DNA of 64,000 nucleotides from Escherichia coli (lineage in GTDB: Bacteria > Pseudomonadota > Gammaproteobacteria > Enterobacterales > Enterobacteriaceae): NCBI RefSeq assembly GCF_041886205.1, contig NZ_CP169029.1. The stretch is one strand, 5' to 3'. Both the position numbers and the translations under genes were made by a program. Positions 13,904-49,024 of this stretch are shown piece after piece (within the stretch, counting starts at the first letter, position 1; every line of letters starts with the position of its first letter). The notes under the pieces were generated by a model, which worked only from the letters and a program-made list of their open reading frames with translations, made no database searches and was not told the origin of the DNA.

Positions 13904-13990
13904 ACTTAGATGTCCGTCTATATCAGATGGGCGTCTAAGTTACCAATTCTCGTCTGATGGCTACATACGGCGGTCAGTTTACGCTTACAC

Positions 13991-14211
13991 AACAATGGCG
14001 CGAGGGAAAGCTGCTATTACCTTCTTCAGAGAGCCCCCAGCTACTTCCTGTGACTCTTGATGCAGTTGCCGAACAGCCAGAATCGCTCGCAGAGGACCCG
14101 GAAACCCTCAGTATCAGTTGTGAGGTAACGTTCCGGCACGGGACGCTCCGCTTCAATGGCAATGTCAGCGAAAAGCTCCTGACTCTGCTGATACAGGAAC
14201 TGAAGCGATGA
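13991..14211 (+). pseudogene. tnpA: IS66-family TnpA, C-terminal fragment only
   Basis: Matches the C-terminal 73 aa of ORF 25092..25493 (...[54 protein letters not shown]). Confidence 0.8.
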
Positions 14212-14558
14212 TCCCGTTACCTTCCGGGACCAAAATTTGGCTGGTTGCCGGTATCACCGATATGAGAAATGGCTTCAACGGCCTGGCTGCGAAAGTACAA
14301 ACGGCGCTGAAAGACGATCCCATGTCCGGCCATGTTTTCATTTTCCGGGGCCGCAGCGGCAGTCAGGTTAAACTGCTGTGGTCCACCGGTGACGGACTGT
14401 GCCTCCTGACCAAACGGCTGGAGCGTGGGCGCTTCGCCTGGCCGTCAGCCCGTGATGGCAAAGTGTTCCTTACGCAGGCGCAGCAACTGGCGATGCTGCT
14501 GGAAGGTATCGACTGGCGACAGCCTAAGCGGCTGCTGACCTCCCTGACCATGCTGTAA
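14208..14558 (+). CDS. tnpB: IS66-family TnpB
   Basis: 116 aa [31 protein letters not shown]...; ATGA overlap with tnpA. Confidence 0.85.
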
Positions 14559-14607
14559 ATCTCTTTATCCTGGTTGTCACAGAATAAGCCCGGTAAAATA
14601 CGGGCTT

Positions 14608-16179
14608 ATGAACGACATTTCTTCTGACGACATCTTCCTGCTGAAACAGCGCCTGGCCGAACAGGAAGCGCTGATCCACGCCCTGCAGGAAAAGCTGAGC
14701 AACCGGGAGCGCGAAATAGACCATCTGCAGGCGCAGTTGGATAAACTCCGCCGGATGAACTTCGGCAGTCGTTCCGAAAAAGTCTCCCGCCGTATCGCAC
14801 AAATGGAAGCCGATCTGAACCGGCTTCAGAAAGAGAGCGATACGCTGACTGGTAGGGTGTATGACCCGGCAGTACAGCGTCCGTTGCGTCAGACCCGCAC
14901 CCGTAAGCCGTTCCCTGAATCACTACCCTGTGACGAAAAGCGACTGTTGCCTGCGGCGCCGTGCTGCCCGAACTGCGGCGGTTCACTGAGCTATCTGGGC
15001 GAGGATACCGCCAAACAGCTGGAGTTGATGCGTAGCGCCTTCCGGGTTATCCGGACGGTACGGGAAAAACATGCCTGTACTCAGTGCGATGCCATCGTGC
15101 AGGCACCTGCACCTTCGCGGCCCATCGAGCGGGGTATCGCCGGACCGGGGCTGCTGGCCCGCGTGCTGACCTCGAAGTATGCAGAGCACACCCCGCTGTA
15201 TCGCCAGTCAGAAATATACGGCCGGCAAGGTGTGGAGCTGAGCCGTTCACTGTTGTCGGGCTGGGTGGATGCATGCTGCCGGCTGCTGTCTCCGCTGGAA
15301 GAGGCGCTTCATGGCTATGTCATGACTGACGGCAAACTCCATGCCGATGATACCCCGGTCCAGGTACTGCTGCCGGGTAATAAGAAGACGAAGACCGGGC
15401 GGTTGTGGGCGTATAAGAAGACGAAGACCGGGCGGTTGTGGGCGTATGTTCGTGATGACCGCAATGCCGGGTCAGCGTTGGCACCTGCAGTGTGGTTCGC
15501 TTACAGCCCGGACAGAAAAGGCATCCATCCGCAGACTCATCTTGCTTGCTTCAGCGGTGTGCTGCAAGCGGATGCGTACGCCGGGTTCAACGAGCTGTAT
15601 CGCAATGGTGGGATAACGGAAGCTGCCTGCTGGGCTCATGCCCGCCGAAAGATCCACGATGTGCACGTCCGCATCCCGTCAGCACTGACGGAAGAAGCCC
15701 TGGAGCAGATCGGTCAGTTGTACGCCATAGAGGCGGATATAAGGGGAATGCCGGCAGAGCAGCGGCTTGCTGAACGTCAGCGAAAAACGAAACCGCTGTT
15801 GAAATCCCTGGAAAGCTGGTTGCGTGAAAAGATGAAGACCCTGTCGCGACACTCAGAGTTGGCGAAGGCGTTCGCGTACGCACTTAACCAGTGGCCGGCA
15901 CTGACGTACTATGCGAACGATGGCTGGGTGGAAATCGACAACAACATCGCTGAAAATGCCCTGCGGGCGGTCAGTCTGGGTCGTAAAAACTTCCTGTTCT
16001 TCGGCTCTGACCATGGTGGTGAGCGGGGAGCGCTACTGTACAGCCTGATCGGGACGTGCAAACTGAATGACGTGGATCCAGAAAGCTACCTTCGCCATGT
16101 GCTTGGCGTCATAGCAGACTGGCCGGTCAACCGGGTCAGCGAACTGCTTCCGTGGCGCATAGCACTGCCAGCTGAATAA
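14608..16179 (+). CDS. tnpC: IS66-family TnpC transposase (523 aa) carrying an in-frame 33-bp tandem duplication
   Basis: Full-length ORF with the CPNCGGSL zinc-ribbon-like motif; [11 protein letters not shown] is repeated twice (15382..15447). Confidence 0.85.
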
Positions 16180-16351
16180 CACATCCCCGTCAATACGGCC
16201 CTCGCTGTACGCTTACGAGTAAGATTTCTTAAAAAATATAACAATAACAAAAAATTGAAATATATCACAAAAAAATCAATATACCCCTTATAAGGCCTGG
16301 ATGACTGTACAGCATGTATATGCCAGAAAACCGGTTTATGTGAATCAGGGT

Positions 16352-46759: not shown

Positions 46760-46936
46760 GAGAGTTACCTCGTGTTTTGTATAAGGATTCGACACCCATA
46801 TCAAAACCGGTAACTCTCAACCTTTCAAGGCTCAGTGTTAGCGCCAATGATATAAGACAGTAATTCACCATTTGAATTGTCCGCTCCACCCAACATGTTG
46901 TTTCCTTGAGGTTCTCACACCAGAAAGGACATCAAC

Positions 46937-48109
46937 ATGCTGAACAGAGAGGACTTTTACATGATAAAGCAAATGCGCAAGCAAGGTGCGTACATTGTCG
47001 ATATTGCGACTCAGGTGGGTTGCTCTGAGCGTACTGTCAGACGGTATCTTAAATACCCTGAGCCACCGGCCAGAAAAACGCGCCACAAAATGGCCAAACT
47101 GAAGCCGTTCATGGACTACATCGACACACGTCTGGCCGAGAACGTCTGGAATGGTGAGGTGATCCTCGCAGAAATCAAAGCGATGGGTTACACCGGTGGG
47201 CGCTCCATGCTGCGCTACTACATCCAACCCAAACGTAAAATGCGTCTGTCGAAGAAAACGGTCCGCTTCGAAACCCAGCCGGGATACCAGCTCCAGCACG
47301 ACTGGGGCGAAGTTGAGGTGGAGGTCGCCGGGCAACAGTGCAAAGTTAACTTCGCGGTTAATACACTGGGGTTCTCCCGTCGTTTCCATGTCTTCGCCGC
47401 TCCAAAGCAGGATGCTGAAAACACCTACGAGTCGCTGGTTCGTGCCTTCCGATACTTCGGTGGCAGTGTGAAAACGGTGCTGGTTGATAACCAGAAAGCG
47501 GCGGTGCTGAAGAATAACAACGGGAAAGTGGTGTTCAACTCTGGGTTCCTGTTACTGGCCGACCACTATGACTTCCTGCCACGGGCCTGCCGTCCGCGCA
47601 GGGCCAGAACCAAAGGTAAGGTGGAGCGGATGGTGAAATATCTCAAGGAGAACTTCTTCGTCCGCTACCGCAGGTTCGACAGCTTCGCCCATGTTAACCA
47701 GCAGTTGGAGCAGTGGATGGCTGATGTGGCTGACAAACGGGAGCTTCGCCAGTTCAGACAAACACCAGGACAACGCTTCGCACTCGAGCAGGAGCATCTG
47801 CAGCCGTTGCCTGATACGGACTTCGATACCAGCTACTTCGACATCCGCCATGTGTCCTGGGACAGCTATATCGAGGTTGGCGGCAATCGTTACAGTGTTC
47901 CCGAAACGCTGTGTGGTCAGCCAGTCTCGATACGCATATCGCTGGATGACGAGTTGCGGATCTACAGTAATGAGCAACAAGTGGCATCACACCGGCTATG
48001 TTCAGCATCATCTGGCTGGCAAACGGTCCCAAAACACCATGCCCCGTTGTGGCAGCAGGTCAGCATGGTGGAGCATCGTCCCCTGAGTGCCTATGAGGAG
48101 TTGCTGTGA
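46937..48109 (+). CDS. istA: IS21 transposase IstA (390 aa)
   Basis: [47 protein letters not shown]... Confidence 0.9.
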
Positions 48110-48906
48110 TGCATGAACTTGAAGCGCTGTTGAGTCGGTTAAAAATGGAACACCTGAGCTACCACGTTGAAAGCTTGTTAGAACAGGCAGCTAAAAAAGA
48201 GCTGAACTACCGGGAGTTCCTGTGTATGGCGCTGCAACAGGAATGGAACGGCAGACATCAGCGCGGAATGGAATCCCGGCTGAAACAGGCTCGTCTGCCG
48301 TGGGTGAAAACGCTGGAGCAGTTCGACTTCAGCTTCCAGCCCGGTATCGATCGTAAAGTCGTCCGGGAACTGGCCGGTCTGGCGTTCGTTGAGCGCTGCG
48401 AGAACGTGATCCTGCTGGGGCCACCTGGAGTGGGTAAAACCCATCTGGCTGTGGCTCTCGGCGTGAAAGCAGCAGATGCAGGCCATCGGGTGTTGTCCAT
48501 GCCGCTGGACAGGCTGGTAGCGACGTTGATGAAAGCGAAGCAGGAAAACCGGCTGGAGCGCCAGCTACAACAACTGAGTTATGCGCGGGTGTTGATCCTG
48601 GACGAAATAGGCTATCTGCCGATGAACAGAGAGGAAGCCAGTCTGTTCTTCCGCTTGCTGAATCGCCGGTATGAAAAAGCGAGCATTATCCTGACCTCAA
48701 ACAAAGGCTTCGCAGACTGGGGAGAGATGTTCGGCGATAACGTACTGGCAACAGCGATCCTGGATCGGCTGCTGCACCACTCAACTACAGTGAATATAAA
48801 GGGAGAAAGTTACCGGTTGAAGGAAAAACGCAAAGCCGGGGTGTTGTCTAAAAACGCAACGCCAATCAGTGATGATGAAATGGCGGAAAGCGGACAACAG
48901 AAGTGA
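48106..48906 (+). CDS. istB: IS21 helper ATPase IstB (266 aa)
   Basis: Walker [19 protein letters not shown] overlap with istA. Confidence 0.9.
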
Positions 48907-48992
48907 TCAAACAGCGGACATTAAAAATGGCGAAACGGTCATAAATCCTGGCGTTGACATCAGTGTCAGATCAAGTCGCGACTAATACACTT

Positions 48993-49024
48993 AATGGCTA
49001 CATACGGCGGTCAGTTTACGCTTA
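48993..49024. repeat. solo copy of the 32-bp IS66-type terminal sequence ATGGCTACATACGGCGGTCAGTTTACGCTTAC
   Basis: Identical to 13959..13990 (the terminus of IS66-family element 1) but flanked by unrelated sequence on both sides. Confidence 0.6.

Follow-up and report, generated by a model that had tools for sequence, protein, structure and literature searches.

The identical 32-bp sequence present at two junctions of the Escherichia coli DNA analyzed here (a stretch of 64,000 nucleotides, referred to as the window) is most probably the terminus shared by the IS66-family insertion sequences (ISs) ISEc23 and IS682, a reading to which we assign a probability of roughly 95%. Its site-1 copy forms the end of a truncated ISEc23, and its site-2 copy is the tip of an IS682-like element stranded by nested ISs. 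The two copies belong to different, related IS species, and both termini now belong to dead elements. All elements, ends, and duplications conform to what is typical of their families, and the arrangement is ordinary and of an already known kind. For ISEc23 and IS682, we rely on the names that PGAP gives to near-identical copies and not on a direct comparison with ISfinder reference entries.

We scanned the window for the 32-mer (ATGGCTACATACGGCGGTCAGTTTACGCTTAC) and found two exact copies on the plus strand, at positions 13957 to 13988 and 48994 to 49025. A preliminary description had recognized the identity of the two sites exactly, but its coordinates (13959 to 13990 and 48993 to 49024) needed shifting by -2 and +1, respectively. 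As the bases bordering the two copies differ (g/a on the left and a/g on the right for copies 1/2), the 32 nt constitute the maximal exact repeat. No third copy was present in the window when up to three mismatches were allowed (chance expectation, 0). The reverse complement of the 32-mer begins with GTAAGCGTAAACTGACCGCCGTAT, the tnpA-proximal terminal inverted repeat common to ISEc23 and IS682; the repeat is composed of this 24-bp inverted repeat, beginning with GTAAGCG, and 8 subterminal bases. IS66-family elements reportedly carry imperfect terminal inverted repeats of about 20 to 30 bp that begin with GTAAGCG. Members of the ISEc23/IS682 group encode tnpA, tnpB, and tnpC (the DDE transposase) and generate an 8-bp target site duplication. 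In the complete copies of ISEc23 (locus L003) and IS682 (L006), the left repeat GTAAGCGTAAACTGACCGCCGTAT and the right repeat GTAAGCGTCAACGGAGCACCGTAT share 20 of their 24 positions, including the opening GTAAGCG.

Among the loci that we fetched, the 32-mer was at the tnpA-proximal end of six ISEc23-type and three IS682-type copies, representing nine distinct junctions. All nine had conserved IS sequence inside the 32-mer and a different flank outside, with varying outer flanks seen for both ISEc23-type ends (L003, L004, L005, L007, and L012) and IS682 ends (L006, L007, and L011). The IS homology ended exactly at ...GCTTAC in every copy examined. Some plasmid matches ran 6 to 20 nt beyond position 13988, but we rejected them as a sign of a farther-out ISEc23 end: the flanks were unrelated in the three records inspected, so the extension reflects chance matching. 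ISEc23 and IS682 share about 88% of their sequence overall, a figure that drops to about 70% immediately inside the tip, but the tip itself is identical. Judging from what is known of the family, the 32-mer would be the DNA recognized by the ISEc23/IS682 transposase.

At site 1, the truncated ISEc23 occupies positions 11911 to 13988 on the minus strand and corresponds to positions 437 to 2532 of a 2,532-bp reference copy. It is 98.6% identical over 2,096 bp (blastn) to the copy in pO145-13516, which PGAP names ISEc23. The genes tnpA (13903 to 13478), tnpB (13481 to 13131), and a 3'-truncated tnpC (13100 to 12000) follow one another in the expected three-gene IS66 order, and all three scored above the cut-offs of the NCBIfam IS66 models (TnpA, 83 bits versus a cut-off of 74; TnpB, 121 versus 50; TnpC, 271 versus 180). 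Copy 1 of the 32-mer (13957 to 13988) is the tnpA-proximal terminus of this minus-strand element, which ends exactly at 13988. From 13989 to 16216, on the plus strand, lies an ISEc8-like IS66-family element that is 5' truncated: it lacks its left inverted repeat and the first part of tnpA but retains tnpB (14208 to 14558), tnpC (14608 to 16179), and the right inverted repeat (16193 to 16216). The preliminary description was correct here, having placed copy 1 where the outer end of one IS66-family element meets a second, 5'-truncated one.

The site-1 element shares with intact ISEc23 the gene order and a GTAAGCG... terminus that ends at the same base but has lost the last 436 bp (the end with the right inverted repeat); its tnpC is flagged as a pseudogene by PGAP in the identical sequence of strain ZYB39. 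This ISEc23 copy is dead. In pO145-13516, an ISEc8-like element has a complete ISEc23 inside its left inverted repeat, with an 8-bp duplication (GAACCGTC) flanking the ISEc23. The junction between the two elements is 235 bp shorter in the window than in pO145-13516 and was found in at least eight genomes. ISEc23 would have first inserted into the left inverted repeat of the ISEc8-like element, as is still seen in pO145-13516, and a later 235-bp deletion starting at the exact ISEc23 end would have joined it directly to internal sequence of the ISEc8-like tnpA. Such a loss may represent an IS-mediated adjacent deletion.

The site-2 element is preserved in two pieces, both on the minus strand. 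The inner piece (45504 to 45660) corresponds to positions 2348 to 2504 of the 2,533-bp IS682 and comprises the leader and the first tnpA codons (MEQKTLSAKPRRSFSNEFKLQMVKLVSQPGA...); its 157 bp are 91.7% identical to the copy in strain RM8385 that PGAP names IS682. The terminal piece of 36 bp (48990 to 49025), which includes copy 2 of the 32-mer (48994 to 49025), is 100% identical to IS682 positions 2498 to 2533, and the element ends at 49025. Of the genes, only the 5' end of tnpA is kept, homologous to tnpA of both IS682 and ISEc23. When we joined positions 45400 to 45660 in silico to 48997 to 49060, about 190 bp of the product could be aligned to the ISEc23 end, and its alignment with IS682 had no gap across the join. 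The joined sequence also gave contiguous matches of 93 to 95% identity in thousands of E. coli records, ending a few bases from the IS end among the matches listed. The remnant resembles IS682 in matching positions 2348 to 2533 and in carrying the same 32-mer, but only about 186 of 2,533 bp are left and these are split by a 3.3-kb nested insert. At about 92% identity, the sequence is a variant and not IS682 itself. On its inner side lies a truncated ISEc39 of the IS256 family (44361 to 45486, minus strand; 406 bits with the NCBIfam IS256 model). Both of its boundaries are approximate. PGAP annotated it as such in ZYB39, where the sequence is identical, and in 290 genomes the matches to ISEc39 end at window position 45486. 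Seventeen unassigned bases (45487 to 45503) separate this end from the start of detectable IS682 homology.

The 3.3-kb insert consists of one IS inside another. The outer one is an IS481-family element on the minus strand, present as a left part of 1,175 bp (45661 to 46835), which begins with the end TGTATTAG... and contains the transposase gene (46804 to 45719), and a right part of 30 bp (48960 to 48989), which carries the other terminal inverted repeat (...CTAATACA). IS481-family elements have a single DDE transposase, short inverted repeats, TGT...ACA ends, and a short target duplication. The window element has one transposase (NCBIfam NF033577, 288.9 bits versus a cut-off of 224), inverted repeats (45660 to 45686 and 48964 to 48990; 27 nt, 81%), the ends TGTATTAG...CTAATACA, and a 7-bp target duplication, CTTAATG (45654 to 45660 and 48990 to 48996), which represents IS682 positions 2498 to 2504 on both sides of the insert. 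The reconstructed 1,201-bp element is 98.8% identical over positions 1 to 1201 to uninterrupted copies in at least 119 plasmids, and a 7-bp duplication was observed in two independent contexts, the window and pAA.

The inner IS belongs to the IS21 family, whose members encode the transposase istA and the AAA+ helper istB and have TGT...ACA ends and a 4- to 8-bp target duplication. The window element (2,124 bp; 46836 to 48959, plus strand; TGTTAGCG...GGCGTTGACA) encodes istA (46937 to 48109; 282.7 bits versus a cut-off of 160) and istB (48106 to 48906; 294.5 bits versus 200), as identified with NCBIfam models. It sits 26 bp inside the IS481-family end, between 4-bp TCAG duplications (46832 to 46835 and 48960 to 48963, the second included in the 30-bp right part of the IS481-family element), and intact IS481-family copies have a single TCAG at this point. 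Copies of this IS number in the hundreds. The same ends, each time with a separate 4-bp duplication, recur in four independent copies, which reproduce the boundaries 46836 and 48959 and bring the number of contexts, with the window, to five. The element is like IS21 and ISEc62 in having istA and istB, TGT...ACA ends, repeated subterminal motifs, and a 4-bp duplication. Copies that carry the PGAP name IS21 or ISEc62 are 86 to 88% identical to it at the nucleotide level; unnamed copies on plasmids of Citrobacter, Enterobacter, and Klebsiella reach 93%. The element is a distinct isoform, one to which PGAP gives no specific name.

At site 2, the 1,201-bp IS481-family element most probably inserted into the IS682-like element about 30 bp inside its tip, the IS21-family element entered the IS481-family element before or after this event, and ISEc39 truncated the other side of the IS682-like element. 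What is left is a 36-bp IS682 tip and, 3.3 kb away, a 157-bp remnant of the element to which the tip belonged. Copy 2 looks orphaned because two nested ISs landed about 30 bases in from the IS682-like end.

A further, complete IS66-family element accounts for the IS66-type genes that lie rightward of copy 2. It is a 2,699-bp ISCro1-like IS (49235 to 51933, plus strand) whose end (GTAACCGGCTC...) is unrelated to the 32-mer. ZYB39 has an empty site at its position. It is flanked by the 8-bp duplication TTTTGTGC (49227 to 49234 and 51934 to 51941), comparable to that of the complete ISEc23 in pO145; both elements carrying the 32-mer in the window lack their other end. The surrounding IS-rich chromosomal island also carries genes for F17 fimbriae, CDI, and CBASS. 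Overall, the structure resembles the nested ("Russian-doll") ISs of E. coli and Shigella islands and virulence plasmids, with an IS within an IS within an IS. As in known nested insertions, the nested ISs have intact, family-typical target duplications, and we see no difference of substance. IS66-family elements lie inside one another in other genomes too (L003, L006, and L007). The only curiosity relative to known nested ISs is that both nested insertions are about 30 bp from the tip of the host element.

The preliminary description had placed copy 2 next to the right end of IS21 and proposed that IS21 inserted directly against an IS66-type repeat, the rest of the host being deleted to leave a solo repeat. 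The raw sequence favors this scenario, in that just 34 nt separate the 32-mer from the IS21-family end and IS66 genes are absent beyond it on that side. The proposal correctly took the 32-mer for a true IS66-family end that an insertion had separated from the body of its element. However, the IS21-family element ends at 48959, and the intervening 34 nt (48960 to 48993) comprise the final 30 nt of the IS481-family element, followed by the initial 4 nt of its right 7-bp duplication. With IS481 sequence on both sides of the IS21-family element and a TCAG duplication, it was the IS481-family element that struck the IS66-type end, and the IS21-family element is nested within it. Nor was the remaining host deleted: 157 bp of the IS682-like body survive beyond the insert, from position 45660 on, where the other copy of the duplication lies and the reconstruction has no gap, and the remainder was cut off by ISEc39. 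The left flank of copy 2, described as unrelated, is so only in the raw sequence; once the insert is removed, homology to the copy-1 element extends over about 190 bp. We regard the scenario as very unlikely. It had also been suggested that the 32-mer is a recurrent site, such as a target hot spot or other host motif beside which ISs land, and in both places it does lie where different ISs meet, which agrees with this. Such a site has next to no probability, given that one side is conserved ISEc23 or IS682 and the other varies in 9 of 9 copies, that complete elements have the 20/24 inverted partner at their far end, and that complete ISEc23 is flanked by an 8-bp duplication. The test put forward earlier, whether the 32-mer is part of the IS21 terminus, was negative, since four independent copies end in ...GGCGTTGACA, equivalent to window position 48959.

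ISEc23 and the IS682-like element could have recombined or undergone gene conversion in this genome, so that their terminal 32 bp became homogenized. In line with this idea, the terminal 36 bp at site 2 match the IS682 reference perfectly and the inner remnant only at 91.7%, and the two IS species diverge to about 70% just inside an identical tip. IS682 copies in the unrelated strains RM8385, CFIAFB20180511, and WP7-S18-ESBL-09 nevertheless already have the identical 32-mer, so tip identity characterizes the two IS species themselves rather than this locus. Homogenization is highly improbable, and a conserved transposase-binding end would be the simpler explanation. The region is dense in near-identical IS copies, a setting in which repeat-rich reads could be misjoined into chimeric junctions. 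Yet every junction has the target duplication expected of its family, and the whole 32-mer and nested-IS arrangement is 100% identical in the chromosome of E. coli ZYB39, an independent complete genome, besides the occurrence of junction 1 in other genomes; the likelihood of an assembly artifact is close to negligible.

The distance from the IS682 end to the IS481-family element is 29 to 36 bp, and that from the IS481 end to the IS21-family element is 26 to 30 bp. Some mobile elements, such as those of the IS1111 type, target transposon inverted repeats. By analogy, it is conceivable that these families actively target IS termini that are bent or bound by transposase and that the two near-tip insertions are no coincidence, although we consider this very improbable. 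A preference of the IS481- and IS21-family elements for IS termini was rejected, as independent copies reside in non-IS DNA with unrelated duplications (the aap-aar intergenic region of pAA and toxin-antitoxin, fimbrial, and hypothetical-gene contexts). One IS481-family copy in E. albertii is inside an IS66-type tnpA, away from the tip. We also rejected the recurrence of IS21-type elements at the same IS66 tip, which two multipiece matches (H77 and H82) had seemed to offer: their positions differ, lying between tnpB and tnpC or beyond the end of tnpC, and the pieces had been grouped by proximity only.

The significance of these observations is small beyond correct annotation, in that an apparent orphan repeat becomes a resolved nested-IS structure with exact boundaries. 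This structure is useful for annotating the island with the F17, CDI, and CBASS genes and for avoiding false calls of a solo inverted repeat or a hot spot. More generally, neighboring ISs should be removed in silico before a deletion is invoked for a stranded IS tip.

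The sequence ATGGCTACATACGGCGGTCAGTTTACGCTTAC occurs as two exact copies in the window, at 13957 to 13988 (site 1) and 48994 to 49025 (site 2), both on the plus strand. The preliminary description had correctly reported this 32-mer as occurring twice, but its coordinates were off by 2 and 1 nt. We found no further copies in the window at up to three mismatches (0 expected from 100 shuffles). Since the bordering bases differ between the copies on both left and right, the 32 nt are the maximal exact repeat. The 32-mer, whose reverse complement begins with GTAAGCGTAAACTGACCGCCGTAT, is the known terminal sequence of both ISEc23 and IS682, two members of the IS66 family.

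At site 1, 53 nt separate the 32-mer from the start of a downstream tnpA on the minus strand (13903 to 13478), which is followed by tnpB (13481 to 13131) and a truncated tnpC (13100 to 12000) on the same strand; all three pass the NCBIfam IS66-family cutoffs. Positions 11911 to 13988 match the PGAP-named ISEc23 of plasmid pO145-13516 (positions 437 to 2532) at 98.6% identity. In five copies from other replicons, ISEc23 conservation breaks off precisely at ...GCTTAC, beyond which no two flanks agree, so position 13988 is the true end of the element. Complete copies of ISEc23 and IS682 have GTAAGCGTCAACGGAGCACCGTAT at the far end, an inverted match to the 32-mer end at 20 of 24 positions, and the complete ISEc23 of pO145 has the 8-bp duplication GAACCGTC on both sides. 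The IS66-family traits that these features match are reportedly those of Han et al. (2001, J Bacteriol 183:4296) and Gourbeyre et al. (2010, Res Microbiol 161:136). Both works are cited as IS66-family references in PMC12898284, which describes another member of the family with an inverted repeat of GTRAC type and a direct repeat of 8 bp.

The sequence downstream of 13988 is that of an ISEc8-like IS66-family element without its 5' end (13989 to 16216; right inverted repeat, 16193 to 16216). In pO145-13516, ISEc23 sits within the left inverted repeat of the same ISEc8-like element, in the arrangement GTAAGCGTACAGCCT-GAACCGTC-[ISEc23]-GAACCGTC-TGGTCAG.... The window junction is 235 bp shorter, and because the missing stretch begins exactly at the ISEc23 tip, we read it as the pO145-13516-type arrangement minus a deleted stretch bordering the IS end. 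The loss likely occurred by IS-mediated adjacent deletion. At least eight complete E. coli genomes share this deleted junction. The tnpC of the ISEc8-like element (15380 to 15447) contains a perfect 33-bp tandem duplication (2.1 copies) that adds 11 in-frame residues and is missing from the pO145 copy. IS66-family elements are recurrently nested in each other: in the pO145-13516 locus (its positions 1540 to 1600 and 4090 to 4130), with ISEc23 in the left inverted repeat of the ISEc8-like element as above, and in RM8385 and CFIAFB20180511, where IS682-type copies lie within tnpC of other IS66-family elements.

Site 2 has three layers, instead of the 32-mer adjoining the right end of IS21 as previously described. 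The innermost is an IS21-family element of 2,124 bp (46836 to 48959), with istA and istB both above NCBIfam cutoffs. Its ends, TGTTAGCG...GGCGTTGACA, are also found in independent copies on plasmids of Enterobacter, Klebsiella, E. coli, and Salmonella; the 4-bp duplication is TCAG in the window and GTTA, TAAC, CTGC, or TTAA in independent copies (one each). On both sides of it lies a single IS481-family element (45661 to 46835 plus 48960 to 48989), whose inverted repeats were detected directly in the window and whose transposase reaches 288.9 bits with the IS481 model. Excising the IS21-family element in silico together with one TCAG restores a 1,201-bp element that corresponds over positions 1 to 1201 (up to 98.8%) to uninterrupted copies in 119 plasmids, which have only one TCAG at the insertion point. 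The 7-bp duplication of the IS481-family element is CTTAATG in the window (45654 to 45660 and 48990 to 48996) and CCTTATT in E. coli 042 pAA. The IS481::IS21 composite could have moved as one unit; no second copy was seen outside E. coli ZYB39. An Escherichia albertii plasmid (NZ_CP099872.1; locus positions 2460 to 3740) carries a 98.8% identical IS481-family copy within an IS66-type tnpA, its left flank encoding ...SCKMEFRHG.... A matching target duplication is missing from this copy, suggesting a rearrangement there.

The outermost layer was examined by removing a 3,336-bp unit, consisting of the 3,329-bp nested pair (45661 to 48989) and one 7-bp duplication, so that 45660 meets 48997. The joined sequence aligns without gaps with the element that PGAP names IS682 and matches contiguous DNA in thousands of E. 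coli records (93 to 95%); among the matches listed, homology ends within a few bases of the equivalent of 49025. By blastn, 45504 to 45660 correspond to IS682 positions 2348 to 2504 and 48990 to 49025 to positions 2498 to 2533, the 7-bp overlap being the target duplication. The remnant still encodes the tnpA N terminus on the minus strand and, outside the 32-mer, is approximately 70% identical to the ISEc23 leader and tnpA. A truncated ISEc39 cuts it on the left, with ISEc39 matches ending at 45486 and 17 unassigned nt (45487 to 45503) in between.

Both sites are present at 100% identity in the complete chromosome of bovine E. coli ZYB39 (NZ_CP098234.1). On the collinearity map, ZYB39 and the window differ only by the presence or absence of whole ISs, and PGAP annotates the same family series in ZYB39 (ISEc39, IS481 family, and IS21 family; IS66 tnpA, tnpB, and tnpC). 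ZYB39 has IS100 (IS21 family) between IS2 and an AT-rich stretch upstream of ISEc23 (locus positions 1048 to 2997), absent from the window at 10656/10657, and an ISCro1 copy at the equivalent of 37791 to 37798 (8-bp overlap), a position that is unoccupied in the window. Conversely, a 1,337-bp insertion (29555 to 30891; 12-bp duplication GGGAACTATCCC; ends ATAAGCGCTAACTTAAGGG...) within a large hemagglutinin-repeat (CdiA-like) gene is absent from ZYB39; from its ends and 372-amino-acid open reading frame (ORF), it may be IS186-like (IS4 family). An ISCro1-like element (49235 to 51933; 8-bp duplication TTTTGTGC) splits a minus-strand gene (49056 to 49234 and 51934 to 53382), annotated by PGAP as 5'-methylthioadenosine/S-adenosylhomocysteine nucleosidase. 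In ZYB39 this gene is intact (505 amino acids), with a WYL-domain gene and the gene for a CBASS oligonucleotide cyclase next to it; the insertion probably knocks out a defense-associated gene.

A long ORF (26057 to 29596) fuses approximately 130 amino acids of an IS66-type TnpC N terminus in frame to CdiA-like hemagglutinin repeats, which indicates a putative fusion between truncated copies of an IS66-family element and cdiA; immediately upstream (25036 to 25795) is an ISEc8-like tnpA-tnpB fragment. According to the ZYB39 annotation, positions ~16352 to 24000 hold an F17 fimbrial operon (F17A, chaperone, usher, and the F17G adhesin at 19163 to 20197), a YfdX-family gene, and a helix-turn-helix domain-containing gene, putatively AraC-like from its sequence. 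Further along the island, the PGAP annotation includes a gene with a reverse transcriptase domain as well as CdiI and CBASS genes. This gene content makes the window a chromosomal virulence/defense island of bovine-type E. coli.

The preliminary description had offered two readings of site 2. That IS21 landed against a solo terminal repeat, with the host then deleted, fails: both borders of the IS21-family element are IS481 sequence, and the IS682 body continues beyond them with the matching duplication. That the 32-mer is a recurrent site fails as well, as one of its flanks is always IS sequence. Misassembly is unlikely, with a family-correct duplication at every junction and an identical independent genome. 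Both nested insertions lie ~30 bp from a host tip, a coincidence that is weak and post hoc. Targeting of IS tips by IS21- or IS481-type elements was also tested and is unlikely: similar-looking genomes had IS21 at other positions, and for both elements there are independent copies in ordinary DNA outside any IS.

The identical tips do not call for local gene conversion, because the identical 32-mer is already present in IS682 copies of three unrelated genomes. ISEc23 and IS682 are ~88% identical overall. The shared tip thus belongs to the two IS species themselves, is neither a local event nor a target site, and is most simply a conserved transposase recognition end. Site 2 is a nested-IS structure of an ordinary kind, fully explained, within an IS-rich chromosomal island of E. 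coli.
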